From a virus (lineage: Duplodnaviria > Caudoviricetes), in IMG/VR virus record IMGVR_UViG_3300023094_000011, positions 1-58,202 of that record: a stretch of DNA of 58,202 nucleotides; one strand, 5' to 3'. This document shows positions 10,783 through 38,633 of this stretch, in pieces. A model generated the notes under the pieces. That model had not been told where the DNA came from and did no database searches. It saw only the letters and a program-made list of their open reading frames with translations. Position 1 is the first letter of the stretch. Each line of letters starts with the position of its first letter. The position numbers and the translations under genes were made by a program.

Positions 10783-12018
10783 ATGGCAACAGCAACAGAG
10801 TTGAAGTCGCAGCTTGACGTCAAGCGTGGCGAGCTTTCCAATTTCATCAAAACCCACACGAACGCCGATAATAAGCTGGACTTCACCCCAGCTGACATCA
10901 CCGAGTTCAATCAGCGCAACGACGAACTCGCCCCTCTGGTGGATAGCTTCACCGCCGCCGTGAAAGCCGAAGACGCCGTGAAAGCGATGCGTCAGGTAGA
11001 CCGCAGCAATTTGTGGGCACCTCAGGGCGTTGAAGAGCGCGTGCAGGAAATCAAATCGATGGGCCAATTGTTCATCGAATCCAACGAATACAAGGCCAAT
11101 TCGGAAAGCAAGCCCTCCACAACCGGTACATGGAAGGCGGAACTATCCCAGGCGTCGGTTTCTACAACGAGCGCGATTAAAGCCGCTCTCAGCACCACGA
11201 CCGGCACGGTTCCCTACGCCCCGGCACGAAACAACATCGTGCCTTTTGCGACACGCCGCCCGGTCATGCGTGACTTGGTGCCGATGGATGACCCTCATGG
11301 ACAGCTTATTCAGTTCATTCGACAGAACGTGCAAAACTTTGGCGCCGCTGTCGTAGCGGAAGGTGCGGCCAAGCCCGAAACCTCACTGGGAACCGAACGC
11401 GTGGTTTTGCAGGTCGAAGCCATCGCTCACTTCATCAAGGTGACAGATCAGGCCCTGCGATTCATCCCCGGCATTCAGAACTTGATCGATACCAAAGGCG
11501 CTCTGGGCATCCAGTTGGCCGAAGAGTCGATCATGCTCAACTACAATGGCGCGGCTGGCTGGAAAGGCTTCTTGACCCAGACTGGTGTACAGACCGCCGC
11601 GCGCGGCACGCAGGATCAGTTCACCGCATTCCACCAGGGCATGAACCAAGTCCAGTTCACTGGCTTTGCAAACGTCACTGGTGGCGTCATCAACAACAAC
11701 GACTGGCACAAGGCGATCACCACCAAAGACGCCAACGGGCGCTTCATTTACGGCGATCCCTTCGCGACGACGCAGGAAGCACGCATTTGGGGCGTGCCGC
11801 TTGTTGTAACACCAGTAATGACCGAAGGTACCGTTCTCATTGGTGATTTCGTGATGGATAGTAAATGGTGGGTTGCTGGTGGCGTGATCGTCAAGGTTGG
11901 CTATGTCAACGACGATTTAACCTTGAACCAGCAGACCATTGTTGTCGAAGAGTACGGCGCCCTCGAAATTGACCGCCCTGCCTCATTCGTCAAAATGACC
12001 GGATGGGAAACCCTCTAA
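10783..12018 (+). CDS. Major capsid protein, HK97 fold with N-terminal delta domain
   Basis: VAEGAAKPE, KDANGRFI, IWGVPLVVT, IGDF, RPASFVK; RBS AGGAG. Confidence 0.95.
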   Translation: MATATELKSQLDVKRGELSNFIKTHTNADNKLDFTPADITEFNQRNDELAPLVDSFTAAVKAEDAVKAMRQVDRSNLWAPQGVEERVQEIKSMGQLFIESNEYKANSESKPSTTGTWKAELSQASVSTTSAIKAALSTTTGTVPYAPARNNIVPFATRRPVMRDLVPMDDPHGQLIQFIRQNVQNFGAAVVAEGAAKPETSLGTERVVLQVEAIAHFIKVTDQALRFIPGIQNLIDTKGALGIQLAEESIMLNYNGAAGWKGFLTQTGVQTAARGTQDQFTAFHQGMNQVQFTGFANVTGGVINNNDWHKAITTKDANGRFIYGDPFATTQEARIWGVPLVVTPVMTEGTVLIGDFVMDSKWWVAGGVIVKVGYVNDDLTLNQQTIVVEEYGALEIDRPASFVKMTGWETL

Positions 12019-17361: not shown

Positions 17362-19380
17362 ATGCCCGCATTTCTCGCCGCCATTCTGCCCGCTCTGGGT
17401 TCAGTCCTCTCTTCCGGCATCAGTGCCGTTGGCGGGTTGGGAATCAAGGCGCTGGCGACCATCCCCACTATGGCGCTTAGCGCGGTGCGCTCTGTCGTGG
17501 GCGTCGCGGTGTCAGTTGTAGGCGCGGCGGTATCGGCAGTGGCCCAGACCATTGGCTCCATCCCTCAGATGCTTTTGGGAACCGTGAGTGCGCTGCTGGG
17601 CGGCGTGAGTAATGCAGCGGGCGCGATCATCAAAGTCGGCACCTTGCTGGGCGGCGTCTTTTTAGGTGGCTTAACTGGCGCGGCGGCTGGCCTCAAAATT
17701 CTCACCGCTGCCTCGATAGAATATGCCAAGAATGTACGTACGATTTCAGCTCAAACCGGACTTGGCTTAGATGCGAGTGCGGGTTTACTGAATCGAAACA
17801 GCGCCATCGGCATCAGCAATGAGGCCACAGCGGGCGCATTTGGCAATCAGAACCCCGCCATCTTCGGAATGAAGGCCAACCTTTTTGGTTTACCTAGATA
17901 CGATGCGCCAGATTTTGCGGCACGATTCGCAGCGAAGTACCAGGAATTAAATGCGCAGGGCATGATCGGGAACATCATGGCGCGTGGCATGGCAAAGACG
18001 TTGGGCCTCGATTCCCCCGACTTTCTGCGTGCCGCTACCTATTCGCCTTCCCAAATCCGTGGGAATCAGGAATATGGGCAGCAGGTCAATGCGCGGTTGG
18101 GCCTAGATGCGGCGCAGATCGGGCGCTTGAGTCAAGAAATCCCATTGGGGATGGCCCGCTTATCGACTGGATTGCAGGCGGTTAGTCAGAAGATCGTCGG
18201 TATTGCGTTGCCTTATCTGGAGCAGGGATTAAACCGGGCATCCACATGGCTGGGACAGAATGCATCTCGGATTGGTGAGTGGATAGAGACGGCTGGGAAT
18301 TTTCTCTTCAACGTTGCCCCTGGCCTCATTCAAGCTGGATTGAAGGCTGTCACGGGCGGCATCGCGTGGGGTGTGGACACGTTCATTGCAGTTAGCGCGA
18401 TATTGCGAGATCAACTGCCGACCATACTGGGGGGTGTCGTCGATTGGACGGTCACAGCTCTCAGCAACTTCTACAACTACGTACAGACAAACGGGCCGCG
18501 CATCGTGGCGGGTGTTGCTAATTTCCTGATCGGTGTAGGGCGTAATTTCGGTAACTTCTTAGTCGCGAGTGCGAAGTTTGTGGAAGGATTGAGTAACACA
18601 AGTAATCCATGGCGTCAGGCTATTGAAGGCGTCGCTCAGGGGCTTGATTTAGGAGTAATTGCTCTCAAAAGTTTCGCGGGAACGCTTAACGCGACTTGGG
18701 CGGCTGTTGAAAATGGAATTAAAACCAGCCCTTTTGCCACTGCGTTAAAAGCTGTGGGGATTACGAATATTGCTGGCTTCGATATCAGTTCGCCCGCCAG
18801 GAATGTCGTAGATGCGTATAAATCGGGCTTTAACGCAATTCCTGCAACAGACATTCTCAGTGCTGTCCAGAACGTTTTGAATAGTAGTGCCCCAGCCGAT
18901 ACAGGCAAATGGTTGCGCGAGCAGGCTAAAGCGCAAAACGATTTCCTGAACGCGATGGCTGCCAACGTCACGAAGTACGGAAATCCTTTGGTTAGCGGCC
19001 TGCTCACTGGCACGGCGAACCTCCACAACGCGATTGCCGGGACCGCTGCCAATGGTGGCAAGAACAAGGGGCGTGTGGCTGGAGAGTATCTCAGTGGTAT
19101 TTTTGGCGATGCCAATAAATCGGCGCAGGGCATCAAGCCCTACACGGACAGCCTTGCTAATTTGGCGAGTGGAGCTACCTCTAAAGGCGCGGAGTCTAAG
19201 ATAGAAAAGCAGTCAACTCAGCTCGACCAATTGATTAAGTTGCAGCAAGAGCAAGTGAATATTGCAAAACAGGCTTTGGCGAGTGGAAGAGAACTTCCGC
19301 GCCAAACGGCGGCCCTTTTAGGGTATGCCCTGTTTACTGAGGCGGAAGCGGAAGGGCGGGGCATCTTGAGCCAGCGTTAG
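17362..19380 (+). CDS. Tape measure protein
   Basis: 672 aa, Ala/Gly-rich helical, after the chaperone. Confidence 0.85.
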   Translation: MPAFLAAILPALGSVLSSGISAVGGLGIKALATIPTMALSAVRSVVGVAVSVVGAAVSAVAQTIGSIPQMLLGTVSALLGGVSNAAGAIIKVGTLLGGVFLGGLTGAAAGLKILTAASIEYAKNVRTISAQTGLGLDASAGLLNRNSAIGISNEATAGAFGNQNPAIFGMKANLFGLPRYDAPDFAARFAAKYQELNAQGMIGNIMARGMAKTLGLDSPDFLRAATYSPSQIRGNQEYGQQVNARLGLDAAQIGRLSQEIPLGMARLSTGLQAVSQKIVGIALPYLEQGLNRASTWLGQNASRIGEWIETAGNFLFNVAPGLIQAGLKAVTGGIAWGVDTFIAVSAILRDQLPTILGGVVDWTVTALSNFYNYVQTNGPRIVAGVANFLIGVGRNFGNFLVASAKFVEGLSNTSNPWRQAIEGVAQGLDLGVIALKSFAGTLNATWAAVENGIKTSPFATALKAVGITNIAGFDISSPARNVVDAYKSGFNAIPATDILSAVQNVLNSSAPADTGKWLREQAKAQNDFLNAMAANVTKYGNPLVSGLLTGTANLHNAIAGTAANGGKNKGRVAGEYLSGIFGDANKSAQGIKPYTDSLANLASGATSKGAESKIEKQSTQLDQLIKLQQEQVNIAKQALASGRELPRQTAALLGYALFTEAEAEGRGILSQR

Positions 19381-19730
19381 CCCGATGGCAGCGTTGCACG
19401 CTTCGCGTCTGATTTGTCACGCACCGGCTTTATGTAGTAAGTGGCTGTTGCGATACGATCAGGATTTTGCTGTGCGCCCATGCCCATCGCCAAATCCCAC
19501 TGAGCCCATATTGAGTCAATTTCTTTTTGCGTCTTCGCGTTGTCAACGTAAACTTGGAACTGTCGCGCCGCTGTTTGTGCATCGTTAGCGTAGAGTGGAT
19601 TGGGTGCCGCCAGCGGCGTCGCTACCGGCACTATTTTGGTGGATTGGCGGCCCATCGTAAAGACAGTTGCAAAGCCACCTGCCGCGATAAAGGCGGCGAG
19701 AATGAGATAGCGCGCAGGGACAATGTTCAT
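19377..19730 (-). CDS. Secreted or membrane-anchored hypothetical protein (moron)
   Basis: N-terminal hydrophobic segment, then a Pro/Thr linker. Confidence 0.65.
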   Translation of the reverse strand: MNIVPARYLILAAFIAAGGFATVFTMGRQSTKIVPVATPLAAPNPLYANDAQTAARQFQVYVDNAKTQKEIDSIWAQWDLAMGMGAQQNPDRIATATYYIKPVRDKSDAKRATLPSG

Positions 19731-19740
19731 GAACGCTATT

Positions 19741-20499
19741 TTATCTCACAGGACTGTTCATATTAAAATTGTTTGTTCGATATCGTTCGGCCATCTGTGT
19801 TGCTTGGAGTAAATTGGCATCTACCGACATATTCCCAACGGTAATATCCCTTTCGCCCTGCAAAATCTCAAGTTTCGTGCTTGCAGCTCTGGAAATTGAC
19901 GCATAAGCAATGCCCGCGAAGGGTAGCTTTAGACTAAGCATATTGGGGTCTCGCCCCATCCGCAGTGCGCGAACAGTTCGGTCAATTTCATACTTTGTAT
20001 TCATGGCAATAAGTCCCACTTGCGACACTTCCGCCTCTGACTGCGACGTGCGAATGATATCCGCCATCAAATTAACCTGACGAACAAGAGAGTTACCGAA
20101 CGTGGAAAAATCACCTACGTCCACCCGTTCGGGATGGGGAAAATTGTCGTTTTGGACTTGGGCCACTTGCCCCATCGGTCGTCGCTGCGCGAAAGGAGCT
20201 GTCTGCGGCGCTCGAAGTGCCTGTGGTGTAGGCGATGCTTTTCTGCGCGGCGTTTTCTGAGCCAATGTTGGCTGTACTCGATCAGGCGCAAAAGGTGGAG
20301 GAGATAGCAAGCTAGGCTTGTTAGAGTAAATGATTTGTGGCGTGGCGGTAGGCTTAGGCGTTAGAATCGGCACAGATGCTAGCGGCGTTGGGGTAACCAC
20401 AACCGTCGCAGGAGGTCGCTGGCAACCAGTGAGCAAGCATAAGGGCGCGGCAAGGAGTAGCCATTTCATACGCGCAATTTTATCACGCATATAAATCAT
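19741..20499 (-). CDS. Putative lipoprotein (moron)
   Basis: MKWLLLAAPLCLLTG-C lipobox; Pro/Thr-rich linker. Confidence 0.7.
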   Translation of the reverse strand: MIYMRDKIARMKWLLLAAPLCLLTGCQRPPATVVVTPTPLASVPILTPKPTATPQIIYSNKPSLLSPPPFAPDRVQPTLAQKTPRRKASPTPQALRAPQTAPFAQRRPMGQVAQVQNDNFPHPERVDVGDFSTFGNSLVRQVNLMADIIRTSQSEAEVSQVGLIAMNTKYEIDRTVRALRMGRDPNMLSLKLPFAGIAYASISRAASTKLEILQGERDITVGNMSVDANLLQATQMAERYRTNNFNMNSPVR

Positions 20500-20536
20500 T
20501 GACCGTAGTTAGTGCTTTTCGTACCGTTTTCATTCC

Positions 20537-21514
20537 CTAAATTCGCGTTTTTAGGGTTTCAATAAGGTCCTTGTGAGCAAACCAATTTTCGTTATAAGTG
20601 ACTTTCATTTTATGCAGTGCGTTGTCTAATTTGCGACAGTGCGGCTTCAGGGAGGGCATTGCCTTTTGCATTTCCTCTGCTGCGTCTTGCATGCCTTGCA
20701 ATTGTTCCAATGATTCGTTTACGGCATCTATCATTTTGCCGACAGCGAGAAGTGCCTGAAAGCCAGCGGTTTTATCGCTTTCTGTCGTAAAGAACATCGA
20801 TTCGACCAAAACGGGCACGCAATTGCTGATAGTGTCCACAGCCGCCTCGGCTTTAGGCAAAGTCAGTTCAAGATTATTTGCCAAGGTAGATGTTGCATTT
20901 CCCATAGCAGTAGCTATCCGAATTCCGCGAGAAGCTACTAACCCACGCGGGCCATTGGTCAAGGCATTCAGTTGATGCGTCTTTTCCTGCAACGTGAGAT
21001 TAAACTCAGTTATATGTCGCGCTTGCTCGCGGGTAGACAATTCAATTTCCCCCGTTGCGCTTGCAATAGCAAGCATTGCCCTGATTGCTTTTTGATCTCT
21101 TTCCGCCAATGTTTGAGCCGTCATAACTGGCTCAAGCATTTCTAGGTGCTGAGAAATCCACTCAACCAAATCGGCGCGCGTTTTTTCACTGGCTGCCAAG
21201 CCTAACATGAAGACAACAACTTCTTTTTCAGGAATTTCTATCAAGTACCCATTTTTAAGAGCAAAGACCGACATGGCTGCAAACGAAACTCGCTTGTTGC
21301 CATCATTGAAAGCGTGATTTTTGGCAAGAGAAAAGCCGAGTGCTGCAATCTTTTCGGGAAATGTAGGATAAGCATCGACCTCGCCAAAGCTAGAAGAAGG
21401 TTGAGCCAAGGCAGACAAAAGTAAACCCTCGTCTTTCACACCGGGGAGTCCGCCATGCATAGAGAGGGTTGCCTTATGGATTTGCAGAAGCTCTTCGTAG
21501 CTTATTTCATTCAT
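20537..21514 (-). CDS. doc: Doc/Fic-family toxin with a long helical C-terminal extension
   Basis: GGLPGVKDEGLLLSALAQP; HAFNDGNKR Doc-type Fic motif. Confidence 0.9.
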   Translation of the reverse strand: MNEISYEELLQIHKATLSMHGGLPGVKDEGLLLSALAQPSSSFGEVDAYPTFPEKIAALGFSLAKNHAFNDGNKRVSFAAMSVFALKNGYLIEIPEKEVVVFMLGLAASEKTRADLVEWISQHLEMLEPVMTAQTLAERDQKAIRAMLAIASATGEIELSTREQARHITEFNLTLQEKTHQLNALTNGPRGLVASRGIRIATAMGNATSTLANNLELTLPKAEAAVDTISNCVPVLVESMFFTTESDKTAGFQALLAVGKMIDAVNESLEQLQGMQDAAEEMQKAMPSLKPHCRKLDNALHKMKVTYNENWFAHKDLIETLKTRI

Positions 21515-31041: not shown

Positions 31042-31737
31042 ATGGCTCAATTCAAAAACGCACCCTACTCTGTCACATTCGAAATGAACGATACCTCTGG
31101 TGTTGCTCAGGCGGGCAAAACCGTGACCGCCACTGTTTCTAAGGATGGTGCAGCCTATGCAGCGGCGACCGGCACGGTGACCGAAATCGGCAGCGGAGAC
31201 TACATCTTCAACGGCCTGGCCGCTGATTTTAACTGCGATACCTATATGCTGAAATTCGCGGCATCGGGTTGCAGAGATACCAAAGTAGCGGGCAACACCG
31301 AATCGACTTACACGGCGCAGCGCGCGGGCTATATCGACCGTGTGAACACCGCGCTCCCCAACATCGCAGCAGGTGCAAATGGCGGGCTTCCCACAGGGGA
31401 CGCGTCCGGCAGGGTCACAGTAGGAAGCCTTGCTACTGACTCGATTACGGCAGCAGCCATCAAGGCCGACGCCGTGACGGAGATTCAAAACGGACTTGCC
31501 ACTGGTGCTGCCCAAACCGACGCGCAAACCTCACTCGATAACATCGAAGGCGCGCAGACCACAGTGCAGGACGCGCTCGACTTCCTGGTGGCCCGCAATG
31601 GCAACTGGACCAAGAATGACCCCGACGCTTTCCCCGGTGAAGGCACTGTTACCTACACGGAAGCAGAAGAGCCGATTGTTTTCGACGTGGTCTACGATGC
31701 GAACAAGAACCCTTTGTCGGTCACACGCGCCGAATAA
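31042..31737 (+). CDS. Virion structural protein
   Basis: VSKDGAAYAAATGTVTEIGSGDY; ITAAAIKADAVTEIQNGL; RBS AAGGA. Confidence 0.65.
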   Translation: MAQFKNAPYSVTFEMNDTSGVAQAGKTVTATVSKDGAAYAAATGTVTEIGSGDYIFNGLAADFNCDTYMLKFAASGCRDTKVAGNTESTYTAQRAGYIDRVNTALPNIAAGANGGLPTGDASGRVTVGSLATDSITAAAIKADAVTEIQNGLATGAAQTDAQTSLDNIEGAQTTVQDALDFLVARNGNWTKNDPDAFPGEGTVTYTEAEEPIVFDVVYDANKNPLSVTRAE

Positions 31738-31746
31738 GGAGACGCC

Positions 31747-32151
31747 ATGAGCAACTTTCTTTCCCCTGCGGCATCCCCCGCCGATGCTGATGCTGCATTC
31801 TTCGCGCTCGTCGAAGCGCCTTCGACTGAGGGACTCGTAACCATACAGGGCGATCTAGGTTTCTTCGCCACGCCCAGCGTCGGCAAGAACGTCTATTTCT
31901 TGCTGCAAAAGCCCATCGACGGCTCCCCAATTTTTATTGGCAACGAGTTGCAGGACCCCGATGGAAGGCTGGCGGTTGTAACTGGGAGCGATGGCACCTT
32001 CACTGTCTCGCTCCCGGTGCCGCCCTCTAACACCTACTGGCTGTGCCGCCCTTCTGGAATAACGGCCTTCGGTATCGATGTTAGTGAATCCGATATCGGG
32101 GAGACAGTGCAGTTGAGGGATATTTTAAGGGAGGTGGTGGCGACGCTTTAG
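31747..32151 (+). CDS. Hypothetical late protein
   Basis: RBS AGGAG; end of the late operon. Confidence 0.6.
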   Translation: MSNFLSPAASPADADAAFFALVEAPSTEGLVTIQGDLGFFATPSVGKNVYFLLQKPIDGSPIFIGNELQDPDGRLAVVTGSDGTFTVSLPVPPSNTYWLCRPSGITAFGIDVSESDIGETVQLRDILREVVATL

Positions 32152-32348
32152 GGCTCCTTTGGTTTTCGCCCACGCTTTTTCTGTCCCCGATCCCGTGCCA
32201 GCACGCACGCCATCTCAACGATAGCCGCGTGTCCCTCTGGCGTGTCCTCGGCTGAAATTTCGAGTTCGCCGTTTAGAGGCGGTGCATCGATATCACGGGT
32301 GTGGACGTAGAAACGTTCGTCAACATCTGTGATTACGTGGATTCTCAT
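32148..32348 (-). CDS. Small hypothetical protein
   Basis: ATGA overlap with the upstream HTH gene. Confidence 0.55.
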   Translation of the reverse strand: MRIHVITDVDERFYVHTRDIDAPPLNGELEISAEDTPEGHAAIVEMACVLARDRGQKKRGRKPKEP

Positions 32349-32554
32349 TTGACGATGATCTCAATTTGTCCGGCCATCCGCCGTAATTTCAGTTCGATCA
32401 TTTCGATTGCGAGGTCGAGGAAAGGCGGAATTTTAGCGATACCCTGCTCCCAATTGCGCAGCGTCCCGACATTGGGCAGTTTTAGGGCGGCGGCCATCTG
32501 AACCTGTGTGTAGCCAATATCATCGCGCCGTTGTTTCAGTTGTGCGGGTGTCAT
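32345..32554 (-). CDS. Xre-family HTH regulator (Aca-like)
   Basis: MTPAQLKQRRDDIGYTQVQMAAAL...TLRNWEQG. Confidence 0.85.
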   Translation of the reverse strand: MTPAQLKQRRDDIGYTQVQMAAALKLPNVGTLRNWEQGIAKIPPFLDLAIEMIELKLRRMAGQIEIIVK

Positions 32555-32559
32555 AAAAT
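32531..32559 (+). promoter_or_regulatory. Candidate sigma70 promoter for the first repeat-like units
   Basis: TTGTTT-17 bp-TAAAAT; predicted start ~32566. Confidence 0.35.
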
Positions 32560-32620
32560 GAGACTCGTATTATCTCCGCGTGTGCGGAGTGTCGTATGGT
32601 TCCACGCTTCGGCGGGGACG

Positions 32621-32658
32621 AAACAGCCCCAAGGGATTGCGCCCCTGGGGCTGTTTTT
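32621..32658. terminator. Bidirectional terminator-like hairpin
   Basis: AAACAGCCCCAAGGG-ATTGCG-CCCCTGGGGCTGTTTTT. Confidence 0.7.
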
Positions 32659-32665
32659 CTATCCT
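32637..32665 (+). promoter_or_regulatory. Candidate promoter for the three-repeat array
   Basis: TTGCGC-17 bp-TATCCT; predicted start ~32671, the first base of a repeat. Confidence 0.35.
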
Positions 32666-32819
32666 AATGAAAGTTCTTCGCAGGTGCGAAGGCGAATTGT
32701 GTCTACATCAGACATAGTGCATGTTTCCTGCGTGCGCAGGGATGAACCGGATTTTCTCTGGTTTAAACGCCATTCGCAGTAAAGTTCCCTACATATGTGG
32801 GGATGAACCCTCCGCTGCT

Positions 32820-33395
32820 TCAATTTAGAGTGCGTACGTTTTCGCTTCTCCAATAACGAATCCAGCGGTTACCGATCCACTTCCAGCCATCATCTGAGAT
32901 TTGCGTTGCAGAAAGACGCCGAAACCACTGGTTTGTCATGTCGTCAAACTGCCAGCCCTCGCCATCAGGGGACTCAATGCCGCCCGGGTCTTTTATTGCG
33001 TCAAATTGCTCCCACCAGTCACCAGAGCCTGCGCTCTTGAACGGTCCCACCTCGCGCGCCTGCCAGTAGTAGGACTCAATCCCTTCAATTTCACTCATTG
33101 CATCGTTTAACTTGTCGATTTCGAAATCATCGCAAATAAACATGAAATCGTCCCCGCCGCCAGTCACAATGGCAGTGCGGATAGTAGGTGCGGGCGACAC
33201 AAAACGGCAAACCCAAATTATCGCTTCATACGTCAGATTGCCTTCAGGGATTTCAGCTAAATAATCATCAGCGTCGAACCCCCATCCCTGGGAGCGGCGG
33301 TAATTGGCTACAATAGCACGTGCCACGCTAGGCAGTTCAGTTACGGGTGAATCGCCTTTGAACAGGATGCTGCACTCGAAATTTGAAACATTCAT
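32820..33395 (-). CDS. Acidic, Trp-rich hypothetical protein (anti-defence candidate)
   Basis: ATG 33395 with RBS GGAGA (alternative leaderless ATG 33440); first gene behind an operator-containing promoter. Confidence 0.7.
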   Translation of the reverse strand: MNVSNFECSILFKGDSPVTELPSVARAIVANYRRSQGWGFDADDYLAEIPEGNLTYEAIIWVCRFVSPAPTIRTAIVTGGGDDFMFICDDFEIDKLNDAMSEIEGIESYYWQAREVGPFKSAGSGDWWEQFDAIKDPGGIESPDGEGWQFDDMTNQWFRRLSATQISDDGWKWIGNRWIRYWRSENVRTLN

Positions 33396-33445
33396 TGTAT
33401 TATCTCCACTAACATTTTGTTCGCCATTGCGCGGCGACATAGATA

Positions 33446-33474
33446 ATTATATACACAATCTGTGTACCATGCAA
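33446..33474 (-). promoter_or_regulatory. Strong sigma70 promoter with palindromic operator in the spacer
   Basis: TTGCAT-17 bp-TATAAT; inverted repeat TACACA-N3-TGTGTA at 33452-33466. Confidence 0.8.
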
Positions 33475-33498
33475 GGGTATTTACAAAAAACCTGAAAT

Positions 33499-33708
33499 TT
33501 ATTTCCTCGTATCCAAAACCCACTCCCGCCCATCCGGCTCAGTCACCACAATCGCCCTCACCGGGTGTCGCCACTGCTCGATCCGCTTCAACAGGAAAAG
33601 GCCGCCATTTAGAACGATGGCGGTTACGATGACGCCAGCTAGGAAGTAGGACCAGGGGTTGGTGGTGCGTGTGGCGGGCTCGGTTGGGTTGGGGATGGGT
33701 GGAAGCAT
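33499..33708 (-). CDS. Small single-TM membrane protein
   Basis: WSYFLAGVIVTAIVLNGGLFLL. Confidence 0.55.
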   Translation of the reverse strand: MLPPIPNPTEPATRTTNPWSYFLAGVIVTAIVLNGGLFLLKRIEQWRHPVRAIVVTEPDGREWVLDTRK

Positions 33709-33741
33709 GGCGTCTTATTGATAAATGGCCTGTTTTTCTTG

Positions 33742-33769
33742 ACCTGACACAATAAGCGTTGTGAAAGGT
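33742..33769. other. dif/Xer-like tyrosine recombinase site (11-6-11)
   Basis: ACCTGACACAA-TAAGCG-TTGTGAAAGGT; arms are 9/11 inverted repeats. Confidence 0.5.
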
Positions 33770-33829
33770 TAAAGTCATTTTTGCGCTTATTTCGGGGAAT
33801 GAGCTTATTGATAATCGACCGTCTATTTA

Positions 33830-33869
33830 TTCCCACAGTTTTTTGATTTTGGACAACAAACTGTGGGAA
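33830..33869. repeat. 12-bp perfect inverted repeat downstream of rep
   Basis: TTCCCACAGTTT...AAACTGTGGGAA. Confidence 0.7.
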
Positions 33870-33878
33870 GGACCGGAC

Positions 33879-34850
33879 TTAGTGCATCCTCTCGGCTAAA
33901 GTCTCCCCTGCCCGCGCCCACTCGACCGGCGCCTGTTTCGAGAGGTAATCTTTTTTCTGCGACACGAATTCAAAGCCCGCAATGCATATTTCAAGCTTCT
34001 CGCGGCGTAGAGGTTCCATAAGGGCGAGACACGCCGCGACTTGGGCAGTAGCGCGGGCGCGCAGCTCATCAATGGACAGCCTAGGGGCATCCTCATGGTA
34101 ATCGGCGCGCGATCCCGCATTTTGCACGTCAGGCGCTTCGACCGGCGCCGGGGCCATCGGTAACAAGCTGGGGTCTTTGAGCCGAGTAATAAGAAGCCCT
34201 ACCCCGCGAAGATTAAGCTTGTTCACAGTCTCCCACCACGCAATCACGCGCGGCACGTCCGGCCCAGCGTACTTAAGAGCATCACGCGCCGTGAGCCTCG
34301 CACCTATCAACATCTGGCGCCACTGTTCCATTTCCTCTGCGCTGCGTCCATCAATATCGGTGGCATCCAAAACGGGCGAAGAATTCGCATCTTCAACAAC
34401 GCCGTTGTCTGTTTCGTTTTGCATTGAGTCCACCTCCACTGTTTTGTGGCTCTCTTTGAGCGACGGTCCCGGCTCAGCTTTGACCGGGGATGGGGGGTCA
34501 ATTTGTTTAAAGAAATAGCCGTTTGAGGTCTGGCGCATCTTGCCGCGTTTCGTAGGTTCAAAGCGGGGATTCCATCCAACCAGTTCGGCGTCAGCGAGAG
34601 ATTTGAGGGCACGCTTCACCGTCGCCACGCTCAAGCCGGTATCGGCGGCGAGAATCTCATGCGACGGCCACGCAGTAGGGTTACGGCCCATACGGGCGAC
34701 CAGGGCGGTATAAACCTTGAAGGGGGACGGTTTGAGTTTGGCGCCGTGAGTGCGCAGCCACTGCACATTGAGGCGAATGTGCGCTTTGGTGGGGGGGGAA
34801 GGTTGAGCGGGTGTTGACGCCACAGATGGCGCTACGGTAAGATTGGACAT
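33879..34850 (-). CDS. Winged-HTH replication initiator (plasmid Rep candidate)
   Basis: FKVYTAL...AWPSHEILAADTGLSVATVKRALKSL...TSNGY (HTH_36-like). Confidence 0.75.
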   Translation of the reverse strand: MSNLTVAPSVASTPAQPSPPTKAHIRLNVQWLRTHGAKLKPSPFKVYTALVARMGRNPTAWPSHEILAADTGLSVATVKRALKSLADAELVGWNPRFEPTKRGKMRQTSNGYFFKQIDPPSPVKAEPGPSLKESHKTVEVDSMQNETDNGVVEDANSSPVLDATDIDGRSAEEMEQWRQMLIGARLTARDALKYAGPDVPRVIAWWETVNKLNLRGVGLLITRLKDPSLLPMAPAPVEAPDVQNAGSRADYHEDAPRLSIDELRARATAQVAACLALMEPLRREKLEICIAGFEFVSQKKDYLSKQAPVEWARAGETLAERMH

Positions 34851-34971
34851 AGTGGTTTTCTACGCGGGTAACCGCGTCGTTAACAGAAGGGGTCTAACTT
34901 TTGCGGGAAAGTCCCTTCAAACTGAAAGTTGTGTAAAAGCCTGTTTCCCCTGCAAGGGAAACGGGCTTTTT
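34850..34971 (+). ncRNA. Candidate antisense copy-control RNA opposite the rep leader
   Basis: Promoter TTGACG-18 bp-TAAGAT (34814-34843); terminator hairpin 34935-34971. Confidence 0.45.
34935..34971. terminator. Bidirectional terminator
   Basis: AAAAGCCTGTTTCCC-CTGCAA-GGGAAACGGGCTTTTT. Confidence 0.75.
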
Positions 34972-34987
34972 GCATTTACGGCTATTT

Positions 34988-35137
34988 CTATTGCGGCAAT
35001 TCGCTGCGAGAGATTAACCATGCGCGCCCGATTTTAGAGCCTTTTAAACGGCCCTCTCTCAACCACTTGCGAACCGTATACGGCGTGGTTTTCAAGAATT
35101 TTGCGGCTTCATCAACGGTTAAGAGTTCAGTGGTCAT
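34988..35137 (-). CDS. Xis-like HTH_17 DNA-binding protein (49 aa, not in the ORF track)
   Basis: MTTELLTVDEAAKFLKTTPYTVRKWLREGRLKGSKIGRAWLISRSELPQ; RBS GGAG. Confidence 0.85.
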   Translation of the reverse strand: MTTELLTVDEAAKFLKTTPYTVRKWLREGRLKGSKIGRAWLISRSELPQ

Positions 35138-35473
35138 TGTTACTAATCACTCCACAACGGATGATAACATTAGACAACCCTAATTGGCAAATTAGTTTTC
35201 CATGCTTGTGAATTGTCAAGTCCCACATACGCCATTCAGCGCCACTCTATCAGCACCCTACCCCTCGCTGAAAACAGGGCGAAACCCTTGATTACTTCGC
35301 TTTCATCGCGTCGAGTGAAGAAGGGTAAGCTTTTAACGCAATTTTAATACTTCTTGAAGACATTTGAGCGACAAAGCTATGCAAATCGGTGGATTAGAAA
35401 TTTCTTAGAAGTAAATTAGTGTTTTTTATTACTGTATAATCCATCACTCATTACGATTACAAAAGGAATTTCG

Positions 35474-35854
35474 ATGCGCGAGGTTGAATGCGTAGTAGCG
35501 TCATATGCACAGATGCGGGATTCCTTGGAATCTGCAATTGATTCTGCAATGGTCGCAGAGTTTTACGAGTGGGTTTCGTCGTCACATGAACAGGCTGAAC
35601 ATCAGCTAACCCTGTTGCGTGCCCAGCGGAATCTCCTTTTTCAGCAGCTTTCGGTACGTAACGAATGCCCCTCCAGTGAGGCGTGGTTGAACGTGAATGC
35701 CCTGATCGGGTGGGCAGAAGAAAGGCACGCGATGTTCGATGGTTACGCCTATGAAATCACGAGCCTCGATAAAGAAACGCTCGATTTAGATCATCCTGGC
35801 GCGGCTTCATTGTGGTTGCGATTTTTGGCTAGTAAGGTTATTTTGCGGGACTAG
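35474..35854 (+). CDS. Hypothetical protein
   Basis: RBS AAGGA; TGTATAAT upstream (~35433-35440). Confidence 0.6.
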   Translation: MREVECVVASYAQMRDSLESAIDSAMVAEFYEWVSSSHEQAEHQLTLLRAQRNLLFQQLSVRNECPSSEAWLNVNALIGWAEERHAMFDGYAYEITSLDKETLDLDHPGAASLWLRFLASKVILRD

Positions 35855-36980
35855 CCGACTCGGTAGTGAAGCGGGCTTTGATCTCCGCAAGTCGTGCTTC
35901 GATGCGTCCGATCCGCGTCACGAAAGCCTCCTTAACGAGTGGGTTGGTGTGGCGATGTTCGAGGATATACGGGACTTGGTTCTCAGTTATCCCTATAAGG
36001 CGCTCGATGGTGTCCAGGCTATGAGTCATGGACTGAGCATCATAAGTGGGCTCTTCTGGAAAATCCCATTGCAGCTTTTCGAGTTCCTCCTTATCGCGTC
36101 GGTCTGCTTCTAGTTCCCGCTCCGTCGATTCTAGTAAATCGTCGATGCTGGGCGGCGTGGATGGTTCAAACGAGCGGCGTGGTTCTTCAGGCGGCGGCGT
36201 GGGTTCCGGTTCTGGTTGCGCTGCTGGGCGCGGCAAAAGCATTTTGATAGCTCCGACACTGGCGCCGCTTTTGACAGCCTGAATCATCTCTTTGCGGACC
36301 GCTTTACTAGCTACGCCCTGAATAATTTCAACGTGAGTCAAAACGTCGTTGAACAGTTGGAACAATTCCACTAATTCAGGATCGTCTTTGATTTTCTTCC
36401 ACACTCGGTAACGGTCCCCTACCCAGGCGGCATTACCCTTTGCGAATTTTTTGAACTGGTTGTCTGCCAGGAATTTTTGAGACCGGCCAAATTCATCAAT
36501 ATAACGAGCGATAGAGCGACAAATCGCGGACAACGACATGAACTCATGTTCGATGTTCTGGGCGTTCTGAATGTCTAAAACCTTCTCTCGGTTTGTGACG
36601 TTTTTTACTTCAACATCAGCACGTTCCCATCCCAAATCCTTAATAGCCCAGTAGCGAATCTCCCCATCGATAAGCTGATGGTCCACACCGTTTCGCACTT
36701 CATCAGGGGTGCGCGCTGCCATTTCGTCAGGCCACAGCGGGCGCACCTTGAAGGGGTCAAGCTGCCCATCTTTAAGGATGCTTTCCTTCCGACTTTCAAT
36801 AGCATCTGGCGGGAAATAATCACGCGGCTGCTCGGCGTCGGGCCTGATGCGCGACATGAGCATGGATTGTGTCACACGCGGGGACGCGCCATTGATTGCC
36901 TGATCCGCCGCGTCCAACGCTGCCACGTTTCCAGGGCGATGCCCGCCACTATGACGCGGGCCGTAATTTGTCTGTGCCAT
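35838..36980 (-). CDS. parB: ParB-family partition protein
   Basis: IRPDAEQPRDYF, SILKDGQLDP, LIDGEIRYWA, QNIEH; directly downstream of parA. Confidence 0.85.
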   Translation of the reverse strand: MAQTNYGPRHSGGHRPGNVAALDAADQAINGASPRVTQSMLMSRIRPDAEQPRDYFPPDAIESRKESILKDGQLDPFKVRPLWPDEMAARTPDEVRNGVDHQLIDGEIRYWAIKDLGWERADVEVKNVTNREKVLDIQNAQNIEHEFMSLSAICRSIARYIDEFGRSQKFLADNQFKKFAKGNAAWVGDRYRVWKKIKDDPELVELFQLFNDVLTHVEIIQGVASKAVRKEMIQAVKSGASVGAIKMLLPRPAAQPEPEPTPPPEEPRRSFEPSTPPSIDDLLESTERELEADRRDKEELEKLQWDFPEEPTYDAQSMTHSLDTIERLIGITENQVPYILEHRHTNPLVKEAFVTRIGRIEARLAEIKARFTTESASPAK

Positions 36981-37585
36981 TATTTGCCTACCATCCGTTC
37001 GACTTCCTTACCCAGCGCCCGATATGCGACCGCGCCGGCTGATTTGGGCGCATTCAATACCACAGGGCGCCGCGCCGCAAAAGCCCGCTCGAAATCCATC
37101 GTACGCAGAGGTACACACGCCTCAGTTACACCCCACATCGACAAAACACGCGCCGCTGCTATAACCCCCGCGCTGTATGCAGAGCGATCAACGCGGGTGA
37201 AAGTAACAGCGGCGATCAGCGATGGGTTTTGCTGTCGAGCCAAATCGATAGTCTCGAAAGTGCGGGCCAAAGATTCCAGCGACGGGCCCAATGGTGTGCA
37301 AGGAATCAGCACAAGGTCACTGTGTAAAAAAGCTTTGCCCGTTGCCGTCACGATCTGCGGCGCCGTATCGACAACAACAAAATATCCCTGTGGTACGACG
37401 TTCGGCATCGCCGTTAAAAATTCCACACCTTCAATAGAACCCGCGTATTTCATCGCGTCGTGTTGTTGTGAATCCAGGTCCACGACGAAACCCTTCCTAC
37501 CCGTTTCTGCAAGCGCGGCAGCAAGGTTAACGGTTGTTGCTGTTTTGGTCTGCTCACCTTTTTGAGCGGCAACTATAATTCTCAT
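36980..37585 (-). CDS. parA: ParA-family partition ATPase (short form)
   Basis: QKGEQTKTAT (variant Walker A), VDLDSQ, VVVDTAP, SDLVLIP. Confidence 0.85.
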   Translation of the reverse strand: MRIIVAAQKGEQTKTATTVNLAAALAETGRKGFVVDLDSQQHDAMKYAGSIEGVEFLTAMPNVVPQGYFVVVDTAPQIVTATGKAFLHSDLVLIPCTPLGPSLESLARTFETIDLARQQNPSLIAAVTFTRVDRSAYSAGVIAAARVLSMWGVTEACVPLRTMDFERAFAARRPVVLNAPKSAGAVAYRALGKEVERMVGK

Positions 37586-37669
37586 GGGTTAGGGGTTACC
37601 GCTTGTGCGGTTAAGGGAATGCCCGCGTTGTTTTTTAAAAATTAACGCGTTTTTAACACTATTTGCACT

Positions 37670-38269
37670 TTAATGCGCGCGAATGACTCCGCGTTTAACG
37701 CCGCAGATGCGAAGATCATGACCTGGCTTCGACGTGTCAATCTCGATTACCTGGTGCTTTTCGTTCATTGGAATGAGCTTCACAATAGGTGAGTCGTGGC
37801 TATAAGTTACTTTCTTAAGTGTCGCCGTAGTGCCCATTGGTCCATCCACAAGGACAACTGCGATTTCGCCGCTGTCGCAGCGTGACTGTTGGCGCACTAG
37901 AACCAAATCGCCGTCGAGGATGCCGTCTCCAATCATGCTGTCGCCGGTTGCACGCAAGAGAAAATCCCCCTCTCTGATGGTGTACAAATCCCCCACATTA
38001 ATGTGGGCTTCAACTTTACCCTCGCCAACTTCTGAAAGGGGACCGCAAGGCACCTCGCCAAAAAGAGGCACAGACTTTGTCTCCCGGCGAATCGCCCGTG
38101 CAACCACATCGTTCTCGGAATTCCCCTCGCGGTCCGCGATAGTCGCCAAGAGTTCTGCAATGCTGGGGGTAACCAGAAAGTTTTTGCGCGAAGTCTTAGT
38201 TTCTTTACGCGCCTTCGAATTTGTGTTGTCTGCCATAAAAGTGGCACGGCTGACGGGTGTTGTGTTCAT
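37670..38269 (-). CDS. CI-like repressor: RHH-like N-terminus plus S24 autopeptidase
   Basis: VPLFGEVPCG cleavage site, GDSM (Ser), TLKK (Lys); N-terminal RKNFLVTPSIAELL...SENDVVARAI. Confidence 0.85.
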   Translation of the reverse strand: MNTTPVSRATFMADNTNSKARKETKTSRKNFLVTPSIAELLATIADREGNSENDVVARAIRRETKSVPLFGEVPCGPLSEVGEGKVEAHINVGDLYTIREGDFLLRATGDSMIGDGILDGDLVLVRQQSRCDSGEIAVVLVDGPMGTTATLKKVTYSHDSPIVKLIPMNEKHQVIEIDTSKPGHDLRICGVKRGVIRAH

Positions 38270-38299
38270 TTGTACGCCTCAGTAGACGGGCTTGTGTCT

Positions 38300-38382
38300 A
38301 TTGTAGCGTATAACCCTGCGTGTCCACAAGAGTAAGAGTCAAAATTATTTGTGTGGACAAGACAGAGGGTTATGGTTATAAT
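38300..38382. promoter_or_regulatory. Divergent promoters/operators of the lysis-lysogeny switch
   Basis: Rightward TGGACA-17 bp-TATAAT (38354-38382); inverted ATAACCCT..TGTCCACA / TGTGGACA..AGGGTTAT; leftward TACAAT. Confidence 0.7.
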
Positions 38383-38455: not shown

Positions 38456-38632
38456 ATGGCAGAGAAACTTCAAAAGGCGCGAGACCTTGCCCCATTGTTC
38501 GGGATTAAGCCCGACACGATTTACAAGTGGCGAAGACGCGGAAAGCTGCGAGGCTACACCGTAGATGACTCAAGACTTTTGAGATTCAAAGAATCTGAAG
38601 TGCGCAAGTGCTTCGAGACCGCAAAAAATTAA
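38456..38632 (+). CDS. Cro/Xis-like HTH protein (58 aa, not in the ORF track)
   Basis: MAEKLQKARDLAPLFGIKPDTIYKWRRRGKL...LRFKESEV; RBS GGGAGG. Confidence 0.85.
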   Translation: MAEKLQKARDLAPLFGIKPDTIYKWRRRGKLRGYTVDDSRLLRFKESEVRKCFETAKN

Positions 38633-38633
38633 A

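Follow-up and report, generated by a model that had tools for sequence, protein, structure and literature searches.

The window analyzed here is the whole of IMG/VR record IMGVR_UViG_3300023094_000011, a 58,202-bp genome of a Caudoviricetes phage, and the element under study is a cassette at positions 32148-33474 in which three small minus-strand open reading frames (ORFs) surround a cluster of repeats resembling those of CRISPR arrays. In transcriptional order these encode a 191-residue protein (ORF191), a 69-residue helix-turn-helix (HTH) protein (HTH69) and a 66-residue protein (ORF66). With a probability of roughly 0.4, we read the locus as an accessory operon autorepressed by a protein of the anti-CRISPR-associated (Aca) type within an anti-CRISPR (Acr) neighborhood, with ORF191 and perhaps ORF66 as candidate inhibitors. 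On this reading its function would be anti-defense, most likely anti-CRISPR, and its place in the genome is the junction between the late operon and the repressor-partition-replication arm of a temperate, plasmid-like phage. An acr-aca-like operon had been proposed in the initial annotation of this region. Our analysis upholds that proposal in the layout of promoter and operator, the kinship of the HTH to Aca3 and Aca10, the orphan genes that precede the HTH in its relatives and the type I-E character of the repeats; it does not uphold a functional link to defense, the continuity of the operon or a coupling between its RNA and protein components.

The promoter ahead of ORF191 has the form TTGCAT-17-TATAAT, with a perfect TACACA-N3-TGTGTA palindrome lying in the spacer between the two hexamers and abutting the -10 element, just as first described (Table 1). 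Its earlier characterization as near-consensus is accurate for the -10 element, which matches at six of six positions and is the sole TATAAT on the minus strand of the window, but overstated for the -35 element, which agrees with TTGACA at three of six positions only and for that reason escaped a consensus promoter scan. Sites of the form TTGNNN-17-TATAAT are scarce: this is the single one on both strands of the genome (mean 0.17 and maximum 2 in 100 first-order Markov simulations), and the combination of such a promoter with an internal perfect 6-N3-6 palindrome arose in none of the 100 simulated genomes. Perfect 6-N3-6 palindromes alone are not beyond chance, with nine observed genome-wide versus about 17 expected, and no second copy of TACACA-N3-TGTGTA was found in the genome at up to two mismatches, the vicinity of HTH69 included. 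The placement of the palindrome fits acr-aca operons as reported in PMC9410906, where the inverted repeat always falls within the core promoter for each Aca family.

The coordinates and coding potential of the three ORFs agree with the original description of an acidic, tryptophan-rich ORF followed on the same strand by a 69-residue HTH and a 66-residue ORF. A codon-usage score derived from 18 long phage genes rates all three as coding (known genes, 0.266 ± 0.093; wrong frames, -0.44 ± 0.27) and rates none of the frames tested across the repeat region as coding. ORF191 has an isoelectric point of 4.29, 32 Asp and Glu versus 17 Lys and Arg residues, and 11 Trp residues (5.8%). Its ATG at 33395 is preceded by GGAG at 8 nt; an in-frame ATG at 33440, 6 nt past the -10 element, would give a 206-residue form that could be leaderless, judging from the sequence. 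The 11-mer GGAGATAATAC (minus strand) occurs both at 33397-33407, 1 nt before the ORF191 ATG, and at 32567-32577, 15 nt before the HTH69 start. This shared placement suggests a common ribosome-binding or regulatory element, with the proviso that a rough estimate makes such a pair possible by chance within 1.5 kb. The ORF66 start overlaps the HTH69 stop as ATGA (4 nt), and the protein ends in a basic tail, KKRGRKPKEP.

Table 1. Features of the cassette, its repeat cluster and the adjoining minus-strand genes. L numbers are our labels for comparison loci.
Feature	Position	Strand	Remarks
-35 element TTGCAT	33469-33474	-	3/6 matches to TTGACA
-10 element TATAAT	33446-33451	-	6/6; sole TATAAT on minus strand of window
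Palindrome TACACA-GAT-TGTGTA, candidate operator	33452-33466	both	perfect 6-N3-6, in 17-nt spacer, abuts -10
ORF191, acidic Trp-rich orphan, candidate Acr/anti-defense protein	32820-33395	-	191 aa, coding score 0.265
HTH69, small Xre-type HTH, candidate Aca-like repressor	32345-32554	-	69 aa, coding score 0.274
ORF66, orphan small protein	32148-32348	-	66 aa, coding score 0.182
Inverted repeat CTCCGC-N4-GCGGAG	32574-32589	both	perfect; 20 nt upstream of HTH69 start
R2, type I-E CRISPR repeat mimic	32782-32810	+	25/29 to array repeats in L009, L008, L014
Spacer between R1 and R2	32750-32781	+	32 nt; R1/R2 start-to-start 61 nt
R1, type I-E CRISPR repeat mimic	32721-32749	+	27/29 to main I-E repeat of L012/L023; 28/29 to L023 variant
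R0.5, tentative degenerate repeat-like hairpin	32671-32699	+	14/29 to L012 repeat; 6-bp stem, 4-nt loop; weak
R0, tentative degenerate repeat-like hairpin	32597-32625	+	65% to R1; 18/29 to L012 repeat
Strong hairpin, terminator or attenuator	32621-32656	both	15-bp stem; U-tract good on plus, poor on minus
Weak promoter-like site TTGTTT-17-TAAAAT	32531-32559	+	faces R0 and terminator; 1 of 4 such sites in genome
69-aa ORF	33499-33708	-	directly before cassette
RepC/HTH_36-type replication initiator	33879-34850	-	family searches
49-aa HTH_17/excisionase-like protein	34988-35137	-	family searches
ParB	35838-36980	-	family searches
ParA	36980-37585	-	family searches
CI/LexA-like repressor	37670-38269	-	family searches

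HTH69 connects the cassette to known anti-CRISPR regulation. Its assignment as an Xre-type HTH is real though weak at the level of the single sequence, where the best match among PHROG transcriptional repressor families has an E value of 8.5e-5. When a profile of five family sequences was searched against PDB (177,635 distinct sequences), Aca3 (9vt3_A, E 4.8e-8) and Aca10 (7xi5_A, E 2.3e-6) were the top two of the 48 matches listed, ahead of 434 Cro, HigA-2 and Aca2; 7XI5 is the deposited Aca10 structure according to the data-availability statement of PMC9410881. HTH69 is furthermore predicted to form a homodimer, with a score of 0.80 (best of three controls, 0.01), a pLDDT (predicted local distance difference test) of 94, contacts through residues 43-55 and 62-69, and at least 97% of contacts agreeing between runs. 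Of 30 proteins solved as same-chain pairs, 20 scored this high, compared with 1 among 23 known as single chains; because many Xre dimers have already been solved, the score speaks more for likeness than as proof.

Relatives of HTH69 were found at five viral loci (four distinct) and six metagenome loci, with 37-48% of positions identical in the first 42-55 residues. Wherever upstream sequence is available, the HTH is preceded by at least one small same-strand ORF; none of these ORFs is related to ORF191 or ORF66, nor are those of different loci related to one another. None of 14 neighbor ORFs scanned matched Pfam at cut-off, and two of the seven scanned against PHROGs matched families, both of unknown function. 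Five low-GC marine loci (L055 and L057-L060) illustrate this turnover: the 62-residue HTH is the same or almost the same in all, its upstream neighbor encodes 83, 71 or 54 residues, and the same tyrosine integrase stands beside the HTH in four of the five, the L057 sequence stopping at the HTH. The variable small gene upstream marks a cargo hot spot, which is the pattern used for finding acr genes. Among the four loci with upstream regions examined (L001, L038, L039 and L041), an inverted repeat with half-site TAGGGC lies in or across the core promoter in three. In L039 and L041, an 8-bp inverted repeat, TAGGGCCA...TGGCCCTA, whose right arm overlaps the -10 element, brackets promoters of the form TTGACA-17-TATGTT/TATACT; L038 has TAGGGC-N5-GCCCTA within the spacer of TTGAAA-17-TATGTA, a promoter read by eye; L001 has no such inverted-repeat promoter upstream. 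As L039 and L041 are related, these three amount to about two independent cases. An HTH at the end of inverted-repeat-promoter operons in three of four loci suggests autoregulation of the upstream genes. What binding of HTH69 to the palindrome at 33452-33466 would require of the sequence is present: the palindrome itself, a predicted dimer and analogous inverted repeats in the promoters of three of four relatives.

The repeats themselves are true type I-E mimics with their sense strand on the plus strand, as the earlier description of CRISPR-like repeats lying antisense between the first ORF and the HTH had implied. A degenerate pattern built from R1 and R2 and searched in one genome per species matched in 29 stretches, among them many long arrays with units every 61 nt. 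Arrays with R1-like repeats belong to a Burkholderiales metagenome-assembled genome (MAG; L012, L023), and those with R2-like repeats to a Porticoccaceae MAG and another Pseudomonadota MAG. The L012 array lies downstream of cse2-cas7e-cas5e-cas6e-cas1-cas2 on the same strand, an order that fixes both the I-E type and the sense strand of the repeat, so that the repeats in the window are antisense to the three ORFs. R2 starts 9 nt beyond the ORF191 stop, the 61-nt spacing of R1 and R2 equals the type I-E period, and the two share 20 of 29 positions with the hairpin kept in each. R1 and R2 thus resemble genuine repeats closely (27-28 of 29 and 25 of 29 positions) and retain their hairpins in a phage without a Pfam match to Cas6e or Cas7e, as described for RNA anti-CRISPR (Racr) repeats (PMC10651486).

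Comparison with published systems shows several features in common with acr-aca operons. The closest parallels are the Aca3 operons of Neisseria (AcrIIC2/3) and the acrIC7-acrIC6-aca10 operon of Pseudomonas citronellolis, in which small same-strand genes likewise stand behind a strong promoter with an inverted repeat in its core, and an Xre-type HTH of about 70 residues, predicted here to be a dimer, lies toward the 3' end. The Aca10 operator also has two arms with 3 bp between them, ATACGCTC-ATT-GAGCGTAT (PMC9410881). In contrast to those operons, the phage cassette has no known acr, an orphan upstream protein, an operator of unrelated sequence, antisense CRISPR repeats and a hairpin between the first gene and the HTH, and an extra gene after the HTH. 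In acrIC5-racrIC1, a repeat mimic follows directly after a small gene (11 nt there, 9 nt here) and cas genes are absent, as they are here; the repeat there is on the same strand and co-transcribed (PMC10651486), whereas here it is antisense to ORF191, with two solid and two doubtful units rather than one and an upstream gene that is not a known acr. Type I-E Cracr arrays resemble the cluster in their differing repeat-like units, their 21- and 32-nt intervals and the candidate protein inhibitors nearby (bioRxiv 10.1101/2024.10.29.618823). They differ in that the 32-nt spacer here has no cas-promoter or CreR-type match in five genomes and that the repeats here have no convincing promoter on their own strand. 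More generally, predicted acr genes in viruses are reported to show enrichment in the 1 kb around racr candidates (PMC10651486; Camara-Wilpert et al. 2023), and viral CRISPR RNA (crRNA)-like arrays to synergize with co-encoded Acr proteins (Liu et al., bioRxiv 10.1101/2024.10.29.618823).

The results in this and the next two paragraphs are those that weigh against an Aca-type anti-CRISPR operon. The suggestion that ORF191 and ORF66 are Acr or anti-defense proteins was not substantiated: nothing links either to CRISPR or to another defense, and both are singletons that lack a family and a confident fold. Neither has relatives among 5.8 billion clustered proteins, a match in Pfam, PHROGs, NCBIfam or PADLOC at curated cut-off or E < 0.01, or similarity to PDB chain sequences, and word-index homology searches with ORF191, HTH69 and ORF66 each returned the query itself only. 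A full HMMER scan of ORF191 against 1.84 billion representatives returned a 914-residue repeat protein alone, which we rejected as non-homologous because the score summed a short YYWQ..R...G.WW motif over seven repeats. AlphaFold2 models of ORF191 (pLDDT 40) and ORF66 (pLDDT 57) are too poor for use, and Foldseek found no PDB match to the ORF66 model at E ≤ 0.001. The Protein Atlas held no usable feature matches for either protein, and its structure rows, which rest on the Atlas's low-confidence models (predicted template modeling scores 0.30 and 0.45), gave template modeling (TM) scores by query of at most 0.58, below the bar for naming a family. Since neither protein has detectable relatives, guilt by association is inapplicable to both. 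For HTH69, the Pfam match to HTH_3 (E 0.0067) falls short of the cut-off, and the sequence by itself has Aca3 as one of two equal best PDB matches at a marginal E value of 0.19, with Aca10 at 1.1. No known acr gene was identified beside any HTH69 relative, although no Acr database was searched. An aca-like gene followed by another gene is not the usual order, and here ORF66 follows HTH69. A search for the host with the capsid protein gave one distant match (24% identity) in 400 genomes, and no RNA runs carrying the phage were among the listed sequencing runs, the one DNA run being probably the source sample. Finally, most aca-like genes have no acr nearby, according to PMC9410906.

Continuity between ORF191 and HTH69 is another weakness, and it bears on a different account of the locus. 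The operon rules of AcaFinder (PMC9765179) specify a common strand, gaps below 250 bp, proteins below 200 residues, an HTH below 150 residues and an Acr homologue. Here all three genes are on the minus strand and encode 191, 69 and 66 residues (the alternative 206-residue start of ORF191 would exceed the limit), but 265 bp, more than the limit and including the strong hairpin, lie between the end of ORF191 at 32820 and the beginning of HTH69 at 32554, so that a single ORF191-HTH69 operon is something we infer. The hairpin was found as an inverted repeat and is absent from a consensus terminator scan; given its poor U-tract on the minus strand, part of minus-strand transcription should pass it. 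It is possible, though on the unlikely side, that the cassette instead comprises three unrelated neighbors: ORF191 would then be an ordinary moron or lysogeny-arm gene, for example for superinfection exclusion or host interaction, under another phage regulator (the CI/LexA-like repressor, the 49-residue HTH_17 protein or a small HTH-like ORF at 38457-38633 being candidates), HTH69-ORF66 would be a separate unit, and the repeats an independent RNA element or relic in the same hot spot. Such an arrangement would agree not only with the intervening gap and hairpin but also with the strand of the cassette, which is that of the CI-like repressor, ParA, ParB and the RepC-like initiator, and with the absence near HTH69 of a second copy of the palindrome, HTH69 being preceded by a different inverted repeat, CTCCGC-N4-GCGGAG (six genome sites at up to two mismatches versus 4.2 expected, thus not beyond chance). 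TTGTGT, which overlaps a palindrome half-site, occurs four times within 130 bp in the CI switch region, and the integrase adjoining the HTH in the marine relatives would equally fit a general lysogeny regulator. However, the switch-region motifs are arranged as direct repeats or as an inverted repeat with widely separated arms and not as a 6-N3-6 element, the HTH closes an inverted-repeat-promoter operon in three of four relatives' loci, and the combination of I-E mimics, an Aca3/Aca10-like HTH and orphan genes within 1.3 kb fits the published association (PMC10651486).

Function of the repeat cluster as RNA was likewise difficult to substantiate. The only good promoter faces the opposite way to the repeats, and the convergent transcription proposed earlier to couple the protein and RNA arms found no support beyond the weak plus-strand site at 32531-32559: promoter scans revealed no convincing plus-strand promoter before R0.5, R1 or R2. 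Racr candidates are described as having a promoter on their own strand within 250 bp upstream and as being expressed as a small RNA (PMC10651486). For the promoter, this weak site is the only candidate; its class occurs about as often as a rough chance estimate predicts, and a terminator separates it from R1 and R2. Searches with the 32-nt spacer revealed no second site in the window, only partial matches (E ≥ 3) among 50,697 phage records and 72,556 plasmids, no match in IMG/VR with every sixth base left free, and no cas-promoter-like target in the five genomes with similar repeats. In those genomes the part of the spacer proximal to the protospacer-adjacent motif has two best partial matches with one mismatch each, about the estimated chance level, and the one in L045 lies inside a 940-residue ORF and not at a cas promoter. 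Conversely, 702 spacers from arrays with similar repeats gave no convincing match to the phage, none extending beyond 14-19 nt. As a mini-CRISPR array, then, the cluster keeps the 61-nt period, but R1 and R2 agree at only 20 of 29 positions and no protospacer was found in these searches.

These observations also bear on an account in which the RNA arm is the core of the locus. A plus-strand mini-CRISPR or Cracr-type array (R0.5, 21 nt, R1, 32 nt, R2), a Racr-like RNA (R0 plus terminator), or both, would load the host's I-E Cascade, and the proteins would not be CRISPR inhibitors but at most regulators through antisense transcription. The exact I-E period, the hairpins kept in R1 and R2 and the near-identity of R1 to a real I-E repeat speak for such an account. 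The 21-nt interval before R1 recalls the reported second spacer-like sequence of a Cracr array, in a class where spacer-like parts of 21-24 nt match cas promoters, often alongside Acr, the example having 24 nt in the first and 21 nt in the second (bioRxiv 10.1101/2024.10.29.618823). The segment 32566-32665, behind the weak promoter-like site, folds into three hairpins with a z score of -5.56 (0 of 200 shuffles as stable). Against this stand the lack of a convincing plus-strand promoter and of a spacer target in the searches made, the divergence of R1 from R2, the low similarity of R0 and R0.5 to real repeats (14-18 of 29), and an operator-bearing promoter and Aca-like HTH that would be left unexplained; we regard an RNA core as unlikely. 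Two features of the plus strand are recorded here as observations. The R0.5-R1 interval (32700-32720) is 21 nt, as in the second spacer-like sequence of the reported I-E Cracr array, and 32531-32665 has the makings of a compact small-RNA-like unit, composed of the weak site, a 33-nt hairpin, the R0 hairpin and a strong terminator with a U-tract. The latter unit is antisense to the HTH69 start and the region upstream of it.

Another account concerns HTH69 and ORF66 as a type II toxin-antitoxin pair stabilizing a plasmid-like prophage, with HTH69 as the Xre-type antitoxin. The maintenance genes of the phage (ParA, ParB and the RepC-like initiator) and the translational coupling of HTH69 and ORF66 would suit such a pair, and HigA-2 and HipB are among the weaker PDB profile matches (E 0.001-0.4), along with weak matches to MqsA. 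However, searches of Pfam, NCBIfam and PADLOC placed ORF66 in no toxin family, a weak PADLOC hit to Avs2 (E 0.049) being the only match listed for it in those collections and PHROGs, and it has no homologues among the clustered proteins. Relatives of HTH69 have no ORF66-like partner, their downstream gene being absent or unrelated, and at 69 residues HTH69 would leave little space for a toxin-binding domain. A toxin-antitoxin pair strikes us as very improbable.

If the Aca-type operon is taken as the working model, the cassette would operate as follows. The strong sigma-70 promoter, with its TATAAT -10 element, would fire at entry and yield ORF191, the candidate inhibitor. A fraction of transcription would continue past the hairpin into HTH69 and the translationally coupled ORF66. 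Dimeric HTH69 would then bind TACACA-N3-TGTGTA in the promoter spacer and switch the promoter off, as Aca proteins do. The type I-E repeat mimics would constitute a separate RNA arm, whether Racr, Cracr or mini-array, that requires plus-strand transcription, and inhibition of CRISPR-Cas or another defense would fall to ORF191 or ORF66.

The genome around the cassette is consistent with a temperate lifestyle. The record is a whole virus with direct terminal repeats and an estimated completeness of 100%. Plus-strand structural genes fill 1-32151, including the terminase large subunit (4312-5907) and the major head protein (10783-12018). From 38269 back to 32148 runs a minus-strand arm with the cassette at its tip, and replication genes resume on the plus strand from 38704; the repressor-partition-replication arm and the end of the late operon thus meet head-on at the cassette. 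The joint presence on one arm (33879-38269) of the repressor, ParA, ParB, the HTH_17 protein and the RepC/HTH_36 initiator suggests a plasmid-like prophage lifestyle. No integrase gene turned up in the phage, though no systematic search was made for one. The final ORF of the late operon (ending at 32151) and ORF66 (ending at 32148) have overlapping stop codons at 32148-32151, and no terminator lies between the two, so that late transcripts would run antisense across ORF66 and HTH69 to the hairpin at 32621-32656.

Further features of the genome were noted in passing. The region at 38221-38360, with the CI-like gene on one side and the rightward early genes on the other, holds the four TTGTGT motifs and an inverted repeat, TGTCCACA...TGTGGACA; they are probably switch operators, and two TATAAT boxes lie close by at 38377 and 38398. 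The 69-residue ORF directly before the cassette appears membrane-spanning when its sequence is read by eye, and a small hydrophobic, membrane-like ORF is also found just upstream of the HTH-ending cassette in L001 (3627-3734), the two having no similarity visible by eye. Within the plus-strand structural region, three minus-strand ORFs (117, 252 and 325 residues) at 19377-21514 coincide with a drop in GC content to 0.47-0.50 and may form another accessory island. At the level of DNA, the locus had no match among the 50,697 phage records, and an Rfam scan of 31500-34500 gave nothing at E ≤ 1. Attempts to find a syntenic locus through flanking genes yielded none with the RepC-like protein and only partial matches of 37-80% with a tail-region protein.

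Plausibly, the locus adds to the published acr-aca and Racr kind and does not introduce a new principle, its unusual feature being repeat mimics that lie antisense inside the candidate operon. One consequence of that orientation, which we consider a long shot, is that the Aca-controlled mRNA, carrying the reverse complement of at least two I-E repeat variants, pairs with the repeats of host pre-crRNA or with plus-strand Racr or Cracr RNA of the phage. If true, this would be a new RNA anti-CRISPR mode in which duplexes block processing by Cas6e or, alternatively, a sense/antisense switch from protein- to RNA-based inhibition once the repressor closes the promoter. Should the favored Aca-type operon fail, what is left is an ordinary regulated accessory gene next to a CRISPR-repeat relic. 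If, on the other hand, ORF191 or ORF66 blocks type I-E or another defense, an uncultured leaf-litter phage would have supplied new inhibitor families that have no sequence relatives and are anchored by an Aca3/Aca10-like regulator, and the locus would offer a compact case in which to study how protein and RNA anti-CRISPR arms on opposite strands are coordinated. As an additional anchor, the HTH69 family, with its MTPAQLK start and variable small orphan genes upstream, could aid the discovery of anti-defense genes.

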